The position numbers were made by a program, and so were the translations under genes. Below the pieces are notes generated by a model. That model did not search any database. It was not told the origin of the DNA and saw only the letters and a program-made list of their open reading frames with translations. From a virus (lineage: Duplodnaviria; Heunggongvirae; Uroviricota; Caudoviricetes): a stretch of DNA of 22,254 nt. Where the stretch lies: the IMG/VR virus record IMGVR_UViG_2529292906_000020, positions 1 to 22,254 of that record; one strand, written 5' to 3'. How positions within the stretch are numbered: position 1 is the first letter of the stretch; each line of letters starts with the position of its first letter. Of this stretch, positions 1-12,168 are shown piece by piece.

Positions 1-1272
1 GTCTCCGGCTGTCGGCAACAGGGAGATTGTGCGTACGGATGCATCTTCAGACGGCCCCGATGGCGTGTCGCCGCCGGGCGAGGGTTTGATTTCCGGTGCC
101 TTACCACTGATGAAGGCTGAGGTGCGCCCGGCTGCGTTCAGAATAGCGGTTGCCATACGATCCGGAATAATGCTCCTGCGCGCCCATGAACTGAAATGTG
201 TCGGGCGGTTTGATGATACCTGGTTTCCATTCGTTCTCGATGCCGCACCGTAATATCCTGATGCCGGAATATCCGGATCTTCTGCCGGTGCGTTAGTGGC
301 GGTATTGACGCCGTTACCGTCTGTCATGAAGGGCACAAAATAAACGCCCTCACTCTCCCTGTTTTTATACCCGCCGTACACGGTGTCGTACTGGGTAGCG
401 TATGTATTTTTCCAGTAATACGTCGTGTCACCACAAATCCACGGCACATTTACAGCACTGCCACCATGACACTGCGCGTTAAACACAGTGAGGTCAGCAC
501 GAAACTGCTTCAGCATGGCTGTAAACAGCGCAGGTTGCTGTGCGTAGGTGGCGGCGCTCATGTCAAACTCTCCCTGCATCCAGCACACCGCCAGCAACAC
601 ATTTTTCGGGTTCTTCTGTAATGCAGCTTTAGTGCGCGCAATCAGGTCCTGATATAACGGTTTACCCACCCCCCAGCGCGCCGAATCCTGGCTGGCCCCC
701 GCGTCCGCACTGAATGTCCCCTCCGCGCCCCGGGTGAATGCCGAACCACCACGACAGCATGGTACCAGCAGGATCCCCGCGTTATTCGGGATATACGGGA
801 GCAGTTTTTTGGCAATATGTAAGCCCTGGCCGACACAGCCGTACTGCCCTTTGCTCAGGTCTGCCTTCGGATGATTCAGCGTACTCATATCCTGCACATC
901 ATGCAGACAGTGGTCAGCCGGGATGATGTCGTTATACGTACAACTCTCTCCACCCGGAGTTACCGTGCTGCGGCGCGCCAGCTGTTTAATGCGCGGATCC
1001 GGAGCATCGTAAGAATCCGGTAACGGAAGCCCTTCACCGTAGGCCATGCCGTTGGACTGTCCGGCAAGCACAACCACGTAGAACCAGTCCGGCTCAGATG
1101 AAGGGCCGACCTGTGGATCTCCTTCAATAGCCACCGCCTGCATCAGTGTGTACGGCGTAATGGCAACCGGTCCGCCATATGGCTGCCAGCCCTCTTTCAG
1201 TTTGTGTGTCAGCTTTTCCGCAAGGTCTGACGGCGACGCCGCCCTGACAACATCATAGTGTTTAAATGCCAT
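1..1272 (-). CDS. nanS-p: NanS-p-like prophage sialate O-acetylesterase (DUF1737-like N-terminus plus SGNH/SASA esterase domain); 5' 424 codons only, 3' end lies beyond window start
   Basis: ATG at 1272-1270 preceded by GGAGG; frame stays open to position 1; translation starts MAFKHYDVVRAASPSDLAEKL and contains VLAGQSNG (GxSxG-type SGNH motif); sits downstream of the phage tRNAs as in Stx-type prophages. Confidence 0.6.
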   Translation of the reverse strand, partial: MAFKHYDVVRAASPSDLAEKLTHKLKEGWQPYGGPVAITPYTLMQAVAIEGDPQVGPSSEPDWFYVVVLAGQSNGMAYGEGLPLPDSYDAPDPRIKQLARRSTVTPGGESCTYNDIIPADHCLHDVQDMSTLNHPKADLSKGQYGCVGQGLHIAKKLLPYIPNNAGILLVPCCRGGSAFTRGAEGTFSADAGASQDSARWGVGKPLYQDLIARTKAALQKNPKNVLLAVCWMQGEFDMSAATYAQQPALFTAMLKQFRADLTVFNAQCHGGSAVNVPWICGDTTYYWKNTYATQYDTVYGGYKNRESEGVYFVPFMTDGNGVNTATNAPAEDPDIPASGYYGAASRTNGNQVSSNRPTHFSSWARRSIIPDRMATAILNAAGRTSAFISGKAPEIKPSPGGDTPSGPSEDASVRTISLLPTAGD

Positions 1273-1466
1273 GAATCCTCCCGGCCGGGATAATATTGTG
1301 AGTAAAATGAGGAGCGGGCTGAAGTCCGGAAGTTACAGGACAATGGCAGAAGAGAGACAATAGCCCGCAATACGAAAAAGGCCGCGCTATTGCGCAGAGT
1401 GATTACTGTCGGATATTATTCGCCAGCTGAAATATTACTTCACGTTTTGTTGTTTATTCCTTGCCG

Positions 1467-1494
1467 CCCGCGTCTCCCTGCGCGGGATTTTTTT
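1467..1494 (+). terminator. Rho-independent terminator-like hairpin on plus strand (CCCGCG-loop-CGCGGG followed by T7)
   Basis: 6-bp GC stem 1467-1472/1481-1486 followed by ATTTTTTT. Confidence 0.45.
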
Positions 1495-1505
1495 GTCCAT
1501 AAGAA

Positions 1506-1525
1506 AGCCCCTCCGGAGAGGGGCT
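1506..1525. repeat. Perfect palindromic hairpin AGCCCCTC-CGGA-GAGGGGCT (8-bp stem, 4-nt loop)
   Basis: Perfect inverted repeat read directly; no flanking U-tract on either strand, so not a canonical terminator. Confidence 0.5.
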
Positions 1526-1721
1526 GGAGAGTGGCGCTATGTGCCATTGCATGGTGCCGGGTGCCTCCCGGTGAATTCAGTACCAGCACCTGAATCCGCG
1601 ATTATCCCATATACCTACTCGCTGATTGCCCCTCCGCACAGGGGGATTCACCATGCCAGTTTCTTTTAACAAACTCCCCGCAAAACAGACAACTGTCAAC
1701 CGTCTGAATTGTGAGACATTT

Positions 1722-1747
1722 AAAAAAAAGGCCCGCAAAAGCGAGCC
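1722..1747 (-). terminator. Rho-independent terminator after the tRNA cluster (minus strand)
   Basis: On minus strand GGCUCGC-UUUU-GCGGGCC (7-bp stem with one G.U) followed by U8 (plus A-run 1722-1729). Confidence 0.6.
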
Positions 1748-1761
1748 AGGGAAAATAAGTG

Positions 1762-1838
1762 TGGCGCGTTGTACTGGATTCGAACCAGTGACCGATTGCT
1801 TAGAAGGCAATTGCTCTGTCCGGCTGAGCTAACAACGC
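1762..1838 (-). tRNA. tRNA-Arg (anticodon TCT)
   Basis: Manual cloverleaf: acceptor GCGTTGT/ACAACGC, D-stem GCTC/GAGC, anticodon stem ATTGC/GCAAT with loop CTTCTAA, T-arm ACTGG-TTCGAAT-CCAGT, encoded CCA; 77 nt. Confidence 0.85.
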
Positions 1839-1851
1839 AGGGTACAGATAA

Positions 1852-1928
1852 TGGACCGCCATCGAGGACTCGAACCCCGCGCAACCAGCTTCGAAGGCTG
1901 GCGCTCTATCCTGATGAGCTAATGGCGG
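1852..1928 (-). tRNA. tRNA-Arg (anticodon TCG as read from loop CTTCGAA)
   Basis: Manual cloverleaf: acceptor CCGCCAT/ATGGCGG, D-stem GCTC/GAGC, anticodon stem CCAGC/GCTGG, T-loop TTCGAGT, encoded CCA; 77 nt. Confidence 0.75.
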
Positions 1929-1935
1929 TATGTGA

Positions 1936-2011
1936 TGGTGGCCCTTGCTGGATTTGAACCAGCGACCTGGCGATTATGAGTCGCTCGCTCTCACCACTGA
2001 GCTAAAGGGCC
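1936..2011 (-). tRNA. tRNA with CAT anticodon (Met or lysidine-modified Ile2, ileZ-like in phage context)
   Basis: Manual cloverleaf: acceptor GGCCCTT/AAGGGCC, D-stem GCTC/GAGC, anticodon loop CTCATAA, T-arm GCTGG-TTCAAAT-CCAGC, encoded CCA; 76 nt. Confidence 0.8.
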
Positions 2012-2060
2012 GCGCGCAGAATAATAACGTTACGGAATTAATACTGCAATCTCATCCGTT

Positions 2061-3110
2061 TCAAACGATTAAATCCTGAACTTCCCTGACTGTCTGCTCA
2101 AAACGTCCGGTCTCCAGCTCAACACCAATCGCACGACGCCCCAGTGCCATCGCCGCTTTTACCGTTGAACCCGACCCCATGAAAAAATCCGCAACCAGAT
2201 CACCAGGACGACTACTTGCGCTGATTATCTGCTGCAGCATTTCTGCCGGTTTTTCGCACGGATGTTTCCCTGGATAGTACTGCACCGGTTTATACGTCCA
2301 CACATCGGTGTACGGCACCTGCACCGTCACACCGAAATACCGCCGCAAATTTTTATATTCACTCAGCAGTTCCATATACTGCCGGTTCAGCTCACTGTAT
2401 GTGCTGACCAGCTGGTGGTGTGGCTTTTCCAGTTCCCCGCGCTGATGTTTCTCTTCTGCCACCCGGGCAAACAGCGACTGTAATTTCAGATAATCGCTTT
2501 CATTCGGCAACTGCCACTGACCGGCACTGAACCAGTGCGACACCATGTTTTTCTTTCCTGTGGCATCTGCAATCTGTTTTGCCGTTATCCCCAGGGCTGC
2601 GCGCGCATCACGAAAGTAAGAAATCAGCGGGGCCATCACATGCTGTTTCAGTGCACTGCCCTTCGCCGCATACCCGGCATCTTTCGGACGATACGGCCCC
2701 TGATAATGTTCCGCGAACAGAATGCGCTCTGTGGCGGGGAAATACGCCCGCAGGCTTTCCTTGTTGCATCCGTTCCAGCGTCCGGACGGCTTCGCCCAGA
2801 TAATATGGTTCAGCACACTGAAGTGTTCACGCATCATGATTTCGATATCAGATGCCAGGCGATGACCACAGAACAGGTAAAGACTTCCGGCAGGTTTCAG
2901 CACCCGCCAGAACTGCGCCAGACACTGGTCCAGCCACTTCAGGTAATCATCGTCGCCCTTCCACTGGTTATCCCAGCCCTCAGGCTTCACTTTAAAGTAC
3001 GGCGGGTCCGTAACTATCAGGTCAACAGAATTTTCGGGTAACGACCGGATAAATTCCAGGCAGTCGGCGTTGATTAACTCACAACTGGATATTTTTACAG
3101 TATTAAGCAT
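2061..3110 (-). CDS. DNA methyltransferase, beta-class amino-MTase (N6-adenine or N4-cytosine); orphan, no adjacent restriction endonuclease
   Basis: 349 aa; motif IV DPPY near N-terminus (LIVTDPPYF) and motif I FFMGSGST near C-terminus, the circularly permuted order typical of beta-class MTases. Confidence 0.85.
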   Translation of the reverse strand: MLNTVKISSCELINADCLEFIRSLPENSVDLIVTDPPYFKVKPEGWDNQWKGDDDYLKWLDQCLAQFWRVLKPAGSLYLFCGHRLASDIEIMMREHFSVLNHIIWAKPSGRWNGCNKESLRAYFPATERILFAEHYQGPYRPKDAGYAAKGSALKQHVMAPLISYFRDARAALGITAKQIADATGKKNMVSHWFSAGQWQLPNESDYLKLQSLFARVAEEKHQRGELEKPHHQLVSTYSELNRQYMELLSEYKNLRRYFGVTVQVPYTDVWTYKPVQYYPGKHPCEKPAEMLQQIISASSRPGDLVADFFMGSGSTVKAAMALGRRAIGVELETGRFEQTVREVQDLIV

Positions 3111-3245
3111 GGATCATTAAGCCTGTCTCTGATAGGCTCATTCTGCTTTTGCGCAAAGCAGTGGGCCTGAGGTTTGCTTGTGAACCCAACGCATGAGCAG
3201 ATGGCTGGCAGGTGCCGCTAACACCCACCAGCCGCCCATTACCAC

Positions 3246-3457: not shown

Positions 3458-3575
3458 GCCTTTTCCCTTTTCTGGTTAACGTGACATACCAATAACTCTT
3501 GTCGAAAAAGCCAGCAAGCTGAAAGACCGATATTAATAACTACCAGCGCGTTTAATGTACCGCACTTCGGGCATC

Positions 3576-3599
3576 AAAAAACCCGCTCAATGGCGGGTT
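3576..3599 (-). terminator. Rho-independent terminator about 20 nt downstream of the 265-aa gene
   Basis: Minus strand AACCCGC-CAUUGA-GCGGGUU followed by UUUUGAUG (U6 run including stem end). Confidence 0.65.
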
Positions 3600-3619
3600 T
3601 AATTAATGAGGTAACAACC

Positions 3620-4417
3620 TTAACTTGTTTGATTCTGTACTTCAGTGGCCTTCTTCCCTTCAATACCTGCCTTGAAAGTCTCGAATGTTTCAACATTAAA
3701 CAGCGAAAAAGATTCGATCTGATCGAAGGGCAACACATGCCTAAACTGATAAACTGACAATGGCTCAGAAGTTAATGTGATACCCTGACTAAGGTAGTAG
3801 TCCACATAATTATGCTCAACACAAAAAGTCAGAGTATCTTTATCTCTGTACCCGGACATAAAAGGGATTAGCACCAATGTGTTAGTATCTAACTGATTGA
3901 AACGTGCCTCATCAATCATCCCCACATAGACCTTGCGAGACTTCAGTGTAACCAACAATAACAATCCACGCTCAACTGATTCAAGAAGGATATTTTCCAC
4001 GGCACTATGAGCCGCAATTTCTTCAAAAATAGCCTTGCGCTTTTGTGGGTCTTTATGGTTTTTGGTTGCCTCTGATGCCTTCCCGATACTTACAATAATA
4101 GTGAAAGCTATCGACATAGCAGGGAACATGCTCAACCCAAACACTCGCATTTTGAGAAAGTCATGGGCGAAAGTAAAGGGAGCGTACCAACCAAACAAGT
4201 ACGCTGGAATGTTCCAAAGTGACATTCCAGCGTACAGAACAACAACCAATAAGGCAGCGATAAGAATACCACTTATGAGAAACTCACCACCTTTCAGTGC
4301 AACATCAAAGTATGCATTCCAACCGATCGCTTTGCTTTGACGGTATCGTGACGGCAAATGGCAGTTGGTATAGTGATAACCACAAACTAAAACAATAACA
4401 ATCAGCGCAGCCCACAT
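3620..4417 (-). CDS. Membrane protein of unknown function (265 aa): three predicted N-terminal TM helices plus about 150-aa C-terminal soluble domain
   Basis: Hydrophobic segments WAALIVIVLVCGY, FLISGILIAALLVVVLYAGMSLW and FGLSMFPAMSIAFTIIVSI; ATG at 4417 lies 6 nt after the stop of the upstream 75-aa ORF (coupled pair); A+T-rich by eye relative to flanks. Confidence 0.7.
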   Translation of the reverse strand: MWAALIVIVLVCGYHYTNCHLPSRYRQSKAIGWNAYFDVALKGGEFLISGILIAALLVVVLYAGMSLWNIPAYLFGWYAPFTFAHDFLKMRVFGLSMFPAMSIAFTIIVSIGKASEATKNHKDPQKRKAIFEEIAAHSAVENILLESVERGLLLLVTLKSRKVYVGMIDEARFNQLDTNTLVLIPFMSGYRDKDTLTFCVEHNYVDYYLSQGITLTSEPLSVYQFRHVLPFDQIESFSLFNVETFETFKAGIEGKKATEVQNQTS

Positions 4418-4423
4418 AGAAGA

Positions 4424-4651
4424 CTAACCCTTCTTCTTAGTACTCAATCCCTTAATATTGGCTGCGAAAGCCTTTTGCACATCAGCGTTGTTGCGATTCA
4501 AAACCATCGAACCATTACTATCAATGAAAAACTTGTCACTTTCATGCTTAGCTTCTTTTCCATCACACATGGAAGCTATATCTGCAATTTTTTTGATGAT
4601 CTTCTCAGGTGAGAGGATCGCGCGAGCGGCAAGTGTTAGATATTTCGGCAT
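4424..4651 (-). CDS. Small hydrophilic protein (75 aa) of unknown function, first gene of the two-gene cassette
   Basis: ATG at 4651-4649 preceded by GGAGGGGAGC (strong SD); alternative upstream ATG at 4708 would add a hydrophobic 19-aa N-terminus (MCAYFVCVLFVFYLLTEGS) but has a weaker RBS. Confidence 0.6.
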   Translation of the reverse strand: MPKYLTLAARAILSPEKIIKKIADIASMCDGKEAKHESDKFFIDSNGSMVLNRNNADVQKAFAANIKGLSTKKKG

Positions 4652-4830
4652 GCTCCCCTCCGTTAACAGATAAAACACAAAAAGCACACAAACAAAGTAT
4701 GCGCACATCCTAACCTATGTGGCTAACAACCACTTTCTTTTATAAGATGAGTGTATTACCTAAAGGGTAACTCGGCAATAGCAGAATAGTTTTAGCAAGG
4801 TAAAATCGATGGTCTTTCGCTCAACTTACG

Positions 4831-4859
4831 ACAAAAGATAGCCCGCTCAGCAGCAGGCT
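4831..4859 (-). terminator. tR'-like Rho-independent terminator about 70-90 nt downstream of the Q-like gene
   Basis: Minus strand AGCCUGC-UGCUGA-GCGGGCU (7-bp stem, one G.U) followed by AUCUUUUGU. Confidence 0.55.
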
Positions 4860-4911
4860 TTGTTTAGTTTGCCATCGTGTACAAAATCAGCAAAATATCA
4901 GATTTACACGA

Positions 4912-4940
4912 AATGTACGCGATTTAATTGACTTTTGCAA
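4912..4940 (-). promoter_or_regulatory. Candidate late promoter (pR'-like) overlapping the 3' end of the Q-like gene
   Basis: -35 TTGCAA (4935-4940), 17-bp spacer, -10 TACATT (4912-4917) on minus strand, immediately upstream of the tR'-like terminator. Confidence 0.4.
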
Positions 4941-11845: not shown

Positions 11846-12010
11846 GATGGCAGCCTCCGTTGACAGTGAAAAACTTCCACCACCGGAAACGCCAATTTCA
11901 CTGGTGGTGAACTGGACGGGGTTGGCGTAACCGGCGTCAACGGAGACCGGCGCACCTTTCGGTGCCCCCGCCCAGCCCACCATAATCTGGATGTGAGCAA
12001 ATGCGGACGA

Positions 12011-12031
12011 TAAAAAAGACGCTGACGCGTC
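12011..12031 (-). terminator. Weak Rho-independent terminator (tR1-like) in the leader between the 235-aa gene and the Rha gene
   Basis: Minus strand GACGC-GUCA-GCGUC followed by UUUUUUA. Confidence 0.35.
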
Positions 12032-12168
12032 ATACATCGCCGTTGACAATTTCAGGACGCCAATCCCGGCACCCGCTTTATAAGGTGCGGAGACAGTGTA
12101 ACGTCCCGAAATTGCAGAATCAATATTTGGTCTTGAAATGATCATATAGCTGCTGATATCTTTAGAAC

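Follow-up and report, generated by a model that had tools for sequence, protein, structure and literature searches.

A terminator-bounded two-gene cassette encoding a predicted membrane-anchored Sm-like protein in the post-Q slot of a lambdoid Escherichia coli prophage

The window analysed here is a 22,254-nucleotide (nt) stretch of viral DNA (Caudoviricetes; IMG/VR record IMGVR_UViG_2529292906_000020, positions 1 to 22,254). It represents a lambdoid E. coli prophage whose replication and late-regulation genes lie on the minus strand. Just 3' of the gene for antiterminator Q, on the same strand, is a two-gene cassette, an A+T-rich insert of 1,256 bp between two terminator hairpins with a total of 1.03 kb of coding sequence. 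Its first gene encodes a small protein of 75 amino acids (aa) and its second gene encodes a membrane protein of 265 aa. This two-gene module is itself new and uncharacterised, but its general kind is known, namely a membrane protein with a partner carried as a prophage moron or hotspot cargo. The region is a horizontally acquired, terminator-bounded moron that sits in a variable slot just after Q and the pR'-tR' pair.

Anatomy of the cassette

The two genes of the cassette are tightly coupled. The TAG stop codon of the small gene is followed by 6 nt (TCTTCT) and then by the ATG of the 265-aa gene. The list of open reading frames (ORFs) of the window also offers a 94-aa alternative for the small gene that begins at an upstream ATG. 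The 75-aa start is preferred because it has a Shine-Dalgarno sequence (GGAGGGGAGC), is the start annotated in RefSeq, and defines the form to which all homologues align. Both genes show a ratio of nonsynonymous to synonymous substitution rates (dN/dS) of 0.06-0.09 when compared with a 95.6%-identical E. coli copy and with a Citrobacter copy. Such low values, a sign of strong purifying selection, indicate that both are real, constrained coding sequences. The possibility that they are spurious ORFs was rejected on the basis of dN/dS together with wide conservation.

The cassette differs in base composition from the DNA on either side of it. Its GC content is 40.9%, compared to 53.0% in the flank that extends from Q to the DnaB-type helicase gene and 51.7% in the flank that contains the winged-helix and methylase genes. 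The upstream edge is formed by a tR'-like hairpin (AGCCTGCTGCTGAGCGGGCT) followed by an interrupted, weakened U-tract (AUCUUUUGUC). This hairpin aligns with the strong tR' of prophages in which the site is empty, where CCCGCCGCTGAGCGGG is followed by seven T. The downstream edge is formed by a second hairpin (AAACCCGCCATTGAGCGGG) followed by TTTTTTG, and the full element at 3601-3575 reads AAACCCGCCATTGAGCGGGTTTTTTG. Thus, a clean U-tract is missing from the first hairpin and is retained in the second. The weakening of the first hairpin suggests that read-through from the presumed pR' promoter could feed the cassette in lysogens. This promoter is presumed to lie in the spacer between Q and the first hairpin. 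A candidate recognised there by eye (TTGCAA-17 nt-TACATT) scores 8/12, which is under the threshold of 9/12 used in the sigma-70 promoter scan.

The leader between the first hairpin and the small gene contains a further hairpin with a U-run (4704-4684, minus strand), located just 5' of the Shine-Dalgarno sequence. It is kept in the Citrobacter copies with a single change in the stem that turns a T-G pair into a T-A pair, and it may serve as an attenuator or mark a site of processing. The regions upstream of different cassette loci are otherwise unrelated to each other. At the other end, an equivalent terminator is present 3' of the pair in Yersinia, Proteus, and Citrobacter. The same hairpin sequence is found in Citrobacter and in a Yersinia tail-gene context. 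Because the Yersinia context is unrelated, it appears that the terminator moves with the cassette.

Table 1. Positions in the window of the cassette, its boundaries and the neighbouring genes, listed in the order of the minus strand.
Feature	Position	Strand	Basis or remark
DnaB-type helicase gene	8678-7278	minus	upstream of Q
Antiterminator Q gene, 231 aa	4924..5619	minus	Pfam Phage_antiter_Q, 1.5e-83; phrog_304, 1.8e-101
Spacer between Q and hairpin, presumed pR' region	4860..4923	minus	conserved in empty, mazF and cassette variants (alignment)
Upstream terminator hairpin, tR'-like	4840..4859	minus	terminator scan; fold -14.2 kcal/mol
Cassette leader, 188 nt	4652..4839	minus	nearly identical in Citrobacter prophages
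Small partner gene, 75 aa	4424..4651	minus	RefSeq annotation; Shine-Dalgarno; homologue alignment
Membrane protein gene, 265 aa	3620..4417	minus	6 nt 3' of the small gene
Cassette terminator	3575..3601	minus	fold -15.8 kcal/mol, z = -5.0
Winged-helix (TrmB-like) gene, 65 aa	3260..3457	minus	phrog_331, 6.3e-37; weak Pfam TrmB match
N6/N4 DNA methyltransferase gene	3110-2061	minus	3' of the winged-helix gene
Three tRNAs, Ile2(CAT)/Arg/Arg	2011-1762	minus	3' of the DNA methyltransferase gene
STnc100 small RNA	1495-1685	minus	3' of the tRNAs

The membrane protein and its small partner

The AlphaFold model of the 265-aa protein is confident, with a predicted local distance difference test score (pLDDT) of 88.9. 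Hydropathy and the model place three transmembrane (TM) helices at about residues 2-16, 45-67, and 93-112. In the model, the TM helices are followed by a helical linker (residues 124-150), a beta-barrel like that of Sm, LSm, and Hfq proteins (residues 153-240), and a C-terminal helix. Charge counts taken across the family gave a net +2.7 for loop 1 and about 0 for loop 2. These charges point to an N-out/C-in topology, which would place the beta domain in the cytoplasm. The predicted cytoplasmic domain displays the elements that define the Sm fold, an N-terminal helix and a bent five-stranded barrel. A Foldseek search of the PDB with the model returned Sm or LSm chains as nearly all of the top matches. 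The corresponding search of viral models (BFVD) returned only uncharacterised phage proteins, a few of which are named Sm-like. As modelled, the 265-aa protein is an inner-membrane protein with a predicted cytoplasmic Sm/Hfq-like fold.

The barrel carries motifs that are invariant in the family: LKSRKVYVG (residues 158-166), SGYRDKD (residues 188-194), and Y204. Conservation extends to a GWxxYF motif next to the membrane. The canonical Sm1 and Sm2 motifs are not visible in the 265-aa protein. Homology to Hfq at the sequence level was considered and rejected, as there was no Pfam LSM or Hfq match and an hhalign comparison of the family profile with E. coli Hfq gave a probability of 0.3.

The 75-aa protein is cytoplasmic and basic (isoelectric point 9.7) and has no hydrophobic or TM segment. 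It is predicted to consist of two helices, a beta hairpin, and a further helix, in a model that is weak (pLDDT 67.6). Its core reads KFFIDSNGSxVLNRNNAxVQKAF, and the pattern shared among the small proteins is KFFIDxxGxxxLNxxNxxVQKxF. Domain searches and the weak model revealed neither a nucleotidyltransferase domain nor a recognisable DNA-binding antitoxin domain in it.

Much of this description had been anticipated by a sequence-only reading, made by a model from the letters of the window and its ORF list. That reading had reported a coupled pair with stop and start 6 nt apart, downstream of a Q-like gene and a tR'-like hairpin, A+T-rich by eye, and closed by its own terminator. It had also described a small hydrophilic protein and a larger one with three N-terminal TM helices and a soluble C-terminal domain, and had recognised no motif in either. 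The analysis bears it out on each of these points; Pfam identifies Q, and the hairpin lies at 4859-4840 on the minus strand. A membrane effector with a partner, the function that it gave as an example, is a hypothesis to which the genomic context lends strength. Its placement of the pair between Q and the late region held only in part. The pair does lie 3' of Q, but the winged-helix gene, the methyltransferase gene, the tRNAs, and STnc100 follow it directly rather than late structural genes.

A widespread pair in variable genomic slots

Neither protein, nor the family profiles built from them, matched an entry in Pfam, NCBIfam, PADLOC, or the sequences of the PDB. Apart from PHROG families of unknown function, the only match was a marginal one to DUF6338. 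This Pfam family matched 3 of 43 distant members weakly (best E 0.0086) and did not match the window protein. Literature searches for the WP accessions, for DUF6338 (PF19865), and for Sm-like or Hfq-like transmembrane defence proteins returned nothing relevant. A word-indexed search with the large protein found 82 clusters, mostly from Enterobacterales, all of them hypothetical or unnamed and free of Pfam domains. The same kind of search with the small protein found 13 clusters. An exhaustive profile search with the large protein reached 2,750 clusters (50% identity) at E <= 1e-3, and 1,721 at E <= 1e-10. Nearly all members found in this way are 240-290 aa long and have the same architecture. 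A genome scan located the family in Gamma- and Betaproteobacteria, Acidobacteriota, Balneolales (Bacteroidota), and Binatia.

The two genes travel together. A hidden Markov model (HMM) of the small protein detected a homologous gene immediately 5' of the large gene at all homologue loci numbered L001 to L065, a count that leaves out L002 and L003, which are without the cassette. The distant loci of Acidobacteriota and Bacteroidota have an ORF of 53-110 aa upstream in nearly every case. The HMM no longer detects these ORFs, and by eye they can be recognised by a hairpin (h-h-G/D-x-G-x-h-x-h-D/N) followed by a helix. The gap between the small gene and the three-TM gene is 0-12 nt, or the genes overlap, in most homologous loci; it is 59 nt in one (L015). 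The large gene is frameshifted or split in seven loci (L028, L044, L056, L058, L059, L065, and L069). In six of them the small gene is undamaged, in L058 it is truncated, and the reverse pattern was never seen in ~100 loci. The pair belongs to a large, widespread, uncharacterised family and forms one conserved, translationally coupled module.

The genomic contexts of the pair are diverse. The order of a small gene followed by a three-TM gene, either overlapping or 6-12 nt apart, recurs in Hafnia, Yersinia, Proteus, Citrobacter, Pectobacterium, and Photorhabdus. The Hafnia pair separates the lysis genes from terminase. In Yersinia and Proteus, it lies within myovirus and siphovirus tail modules. 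The Citrobacter pair is found 3' of another type of antiterminator (PF03589), and the Pectobacterium pair adjoins ProQ and SSB genes. Homologues that are 30-32% identical occur as a pair between housekeeping genes. Furthermore, in the P2-like phages SEN4 and SEN5 and in the Klebsiella phage ST15-OXA48phi14.1, the pair is located between the gpA nickase gene and the portal/cos end. Thus, the pair is mobile between unrelated prophages and chromosomal sites.

Within E. coli, the cassette is one of several cargoes of the same slot. A survey of 5,426 complete E. coli genomes found the cassette in 14, and more than 2,100 match the flanks. Between Q and the winged-helix gene, strain ECL27977 carries no cargo, PSS-15 carries a gene for a PemK/MazF toxin (Pfam 5.6e-14), and strain 95-3192 carries an IS3 insertion. 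In E21845/O/A the slot is occupied by the gene for an unrelated 237-aa hypothetical protein, WP_000342735.1 (locus L104, 1233-1946). This protein has no match in Pfam or PADLOC and is another uncharacterised moron candidate in the Q slot. The edges of the slot are backbone genes. Q, which bears the same annotation in identical RefSeq loci, forms the upstream edge, and the 65-aa winged-helix gene forms the downstream edge and adjoins Q in empty-site prophages. The sequence-only reading had suspected a variable cargo slot at this place, and the five states of the slot (empty, MazF, 237-aa protein, IS3, or cassette) support it. It had also held that homology to a known lysis or housekeeping protein, or a fixed position in all related prophages, would speak against an accessory module. 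No such homology was found, and the position is not invariant among related prophages.

How is one cargo exchanged for another? In an alignment of the slot variants, the empty site has one strong hairpin and both cargo-bearing variants have a copy of the hairpin on each side of the cargo. Near-identical CCCGCC...GCGGG terminators flank each cargo of the Q slot, an observation that draws on the window (3575-3601 and 4840-4859) and on loci L002, L003, L007, L017, and L018. Since the cassette terminator is similar to the resident tR', the two could have provided micro-homology through which the cassette was inserted. The locus shows how lambdoid phages may swap cargo, with flanking terminator hairpins that could act as recombination micro-homologies.

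The rest of the window describes the prophage that carries the cassette, which is lambdoid and Stx-phage-like. The order of genes on the minus strand is DnaB-type helicase, DUF968 protein, RusA, antiterminator Q, and cassette. Past STnc100, about 1.2 kb without a long ORF (it has one annotated hypothetical protein) leads to the start of a SASA/NanS-p esterase gene. This left end of the window (1-2060) matches the arrangement of tRNAs, hypothetical protein, and SASA/NanS-p esterase that is common in Shiga toxin (Stx)-phage-like prophages, here without stx genes. Stx phages with this layout carry stx downstream of Q. Elsewhere in the window, Rfam models for the C4 antisense RNA and isrK lie side by side at 11900-12088 (minus strand), within or next to a 287-aa ORF. 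This region looks like a c4-ant antirepressor immunity module of the P1/P7 type within a lambdoid prophage. An IS3-family element (19740-20953; orfA/orfB, with an ALIL frameshift pseudoknot at 20021-20137) lies between the early-left genes and the integrase gene, which spans 21190 to the end of the window. In E. coli DS26-1 (L001, 9979-10602), an identical cassette has other neighbours, namely tRNAs Thr and Gly, with rem and hokD upstream. The occurrence of an identical cassette among differing neighbour modules indicates that the cassette and the Q region recombine as a block among lambdoid backbones.

Possible functions and relation to known systems

What does the cassette do? The main guide to its function is genomic context. 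The function that we infer, with a probability of roughly 0.45, is that of a prophage conflict system that acts by abortive infection or superinfection exclusion, follows a toxin-antitoxin-like logic, and uses a ring-forming membrane effector. Several lines of evidence point in this direction: the variability of the slot, the low GC content and bounding terminators, the conservation of the pair, its mobility, its defence context, and the features of the proteins. Among the protein features is a predicted cytoplasmic Sm-like fold with invariant basic and aromatic residues. The small-gene-first order and the translational coupling, which resemble type II toxin-antitoxin (TA) operons, point the same way, as do the disrupted large genes found mostly beside intact small ones.

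The defence context comes from several kinds of site. The lambdoid slot itself has a MazF toxin as an alternative cargo. The gpA-portal region of P2 is an experimentally validated anti-phage hotspot (Rousset et al., PMC9122126). A system validated there, TIR plus transmembrane proteins of the P2-like phage AC1, was considered as a possible carrier of this family. In the hotspots of P4, six of eight randomly chosen loci of unknown function protected against phages (2026 study, PMC13586616). In the Klebsiella phage ST15-OXA48phi14.1 (L103, 3783-6492), the pair is followed by a 69-aa ORF and then by a bSEFIR gene (PADLOC 6.9e-103). Escherichia phage 500465-1 has bSEFIR alone, without the pair. 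For this reason, bSEFIR and the pair look like independent cargoes stacked in one hotspot.

Sm-fold proteins typically assemble as rings of six or seven members. In the most likely mechanism for a conflict system, such a ring lying beneath the membrane would bring 18-21 TM helices together, three from each subunit, to form either a latent pore or a plug that blocks injection. The small upstream partner would either hold the ring inactive, as an antitoxin does, or sense a trigger and release the ring. The trigger would be a competing phage. On activation, the integrity of the membrane would collapse, or the entry of the competing phage's DNA would be blocked. A lysogen might express the cassette by transcription that passes the weakened first hairpin, or from a weak promoter within the cassette itself. 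In the late phase of lytic growth, transcription would be the work of Q-modified polymerase. A more ambitious proposal, advanced tentatively and with the odds leaning against it, is that the pair is the founding member of a new class of mobile two-component membrane systems with a broad phylogenetic range. In such a class, a membrane-tethered Sm/Hfq-like ring would detect nucleic acid or some product of a phage at the inner membrane, a partner of ~60-90 aa would gate it, and the outcome would be an undescribed form of abortive infection or injection block.

Several results weigh against a conflict system. The TM segments are conserved in hydrophobicity only, not in sequence, and show no obvious polar residues that could line a pore. 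Neither the window proteins, nor 43 diverse members of the family, nor the homologues in P2-like phages matched PADLOC-DB v2.0. The 149 ORFs that flank diverse members, searched with Pfam and PADLOC, gave no clear defence-island signal. They comprise 5 integrases, 4 portals, and 3 P2 gpA proteins, which is a modest enrichment for mobile elements. On the coding strand of the cassette leader, no sigma-70-like site reached 9/12 and no convincing promoter was found. Finally, the excess of disrupted large genes over disrupted small ones is predicted by the 3.5-fold difference in gene size alone.

Among other explanations, the one that survives best is a selfish TA or addiction module with no anti-phage role, in which a membrane toxin and a labile small antitoxin stabilise the prophage or the cassette. 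The position of the small gene, the tight coupling, and a sporadic distribution over mobile elements and chromosomal sites are all expected of such a module. Likewise, a MazF toxin occupies the same slot in another prophage, and disrupted large genes are found beside intact small genes. An addiction module is nonetheless unlikely, given that Pfam, NCBIfam, and PADLOC show no likeness to known TA families and that the small protein lacks a recognisable DNA-binding antitoxin domain. Moreover, many prophage TA modules prove to be defensive, so this explanation overlaps with a conflict system.

Another possibility is a membrane-tethered regulator similar to Hfq. Here the Sm-like ring would bind RNA or single-stranded DNA and modulate host or phage expression as a form of lysogenic conversion, with the small protein as its cofactor. 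RNA-binding Sm, LSm, and Hfq proteins make up nearly all of the best structural matches, and the invariant Lys, Arg, and Tyr residues lie in a barrel predicted to face the cytoplasm. However, the Sm-like fold is also known in proteins that do not bind RNA, the hhalign result and the lack of visible Sm1/Sm2 motifs argue against descent from Hfq, and the genomic context gives no hint of RNA biology. A regulatory role of this kind is quite unlikely.

A small mechanosensitive or ion channel of MscS-like design, an oligomeric ring of physiological benefit to the lysogen, is very improbable. The middle domain of MscS is classed as Sm-like. In the cassette protein, as in MscS, three TM helices precede a cytoplasmic Sm-like barrel and the topology is N-out/C-in. 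A relationship to MscS was rejected because there was no MS_channel match and no MscS among the fold matches. The most improbable of all is a holin- or antiholin-like accessory that times the prophage's own lysis: despite three TM helices in the N-out/C-in orientation of class I holins and a position between Q and the lysis region in the window prophage, this was rejected on genomic context, as related prophages own two holins and an endolysin and most are without the cassette, which is found also in tail modules, at the P2 gpA-portal locus, and at non-phage chromosomal sites, and a folded cytoplasmic domain of 150 aa in a 265-aa protein is unlike a holin, class I holins being under about 150 aa.

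A conflict system, if that is what the cassette is, would add a new effector or sensor design to those known in immunity and exclusion. An Sm/Hfq-fold protein that is anchored in the membrane and has an obligatory small partner was found in none of the defence models, domain families, and solved structures searched. Prophage cargo slots are a rich source of new immune systems, and the cassette occupies slots of two recognised kinds, the post-Q slot of lambdoid phages and the gpA-portal hotspot of P2-like phages. The family has many members, stays paired across phyla, and is compact, so that it can be easily cloned and directly tested.

How does the cassette compare with systems that have been described? 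Its closest counterparts in genome organization are the lambdoid morons (the concept of Hendrix and Juhala), such as the HK97 gp15 superinfection-exclusion moron and stx. These are likewise extra units between conserved late-operon genes, and they share with the cassette a patchy presence among related phages, a low GC content, and bounding terminators. The position just after Q and the pR'-tR' pair is also that of the toxin genes of Stx phages. The cassette differs from described morons in that both of its proteins are unrelated to their products and in that a promoter of its own was not found. Compared with Hfq, LSm, and archaeal SmAP proteins, the 265-aa protein differs in its anchoring by three TM helices, its extra helices, and its obligatory small partner gene. 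With type II TA systems, the cassette shares a small upstream gene coupled to a larger downstream gene, a patchy mobile distribution, and the presence of MazF in the slot of a sister prophage. It differs from them in having no homology to known toxins or antitoxins and in that the putative toxin would be a 30-kDa polytopic membrane protein.

Three systems that act at the membrane come nearest in mechanism to the one proposed here. RexAB of phage lambda and Rip1 of Pseudomonas prophages are prophage-encoded, are expressed from moron or immunity regions, and kill or permeabilise the infected cell by means of an inner-membrane protein. Rex also resembles the cassette in joining a soluble partner to a membrane protein. 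Rip1, the product of a late-region moron, makes ring pores (PMC13434031). Neither system has homology to the cassette or accounts for a PADLOC match. Furthermore, RexB, with its four TM helices, lacks an Sm-like domain, and Rip1 is a protein of one amphipathic helix that responds to rings of terminase or portal. The third system, Hailong, consists of the membrane channel HalA and the nucleotidyltransferase HalB, and the product of HalB keeps the channel shut via a cytoplasmic crown that binds a ligand or nucleic acid (Tan et al. 2025, as described in PMC13434031). HalA was absent among the listed PDB fold matches of the 265-aa protein, no sequence similarity was detected, and the partner in the cassette is a 75-aa protein rather than a nucleotidyltransferase. 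Nevertheless, both are two-gene operons, and by analogy the Sm-like domain tethered to the TM helices of the cassette protein could work in a similar way to the crown of HalA.

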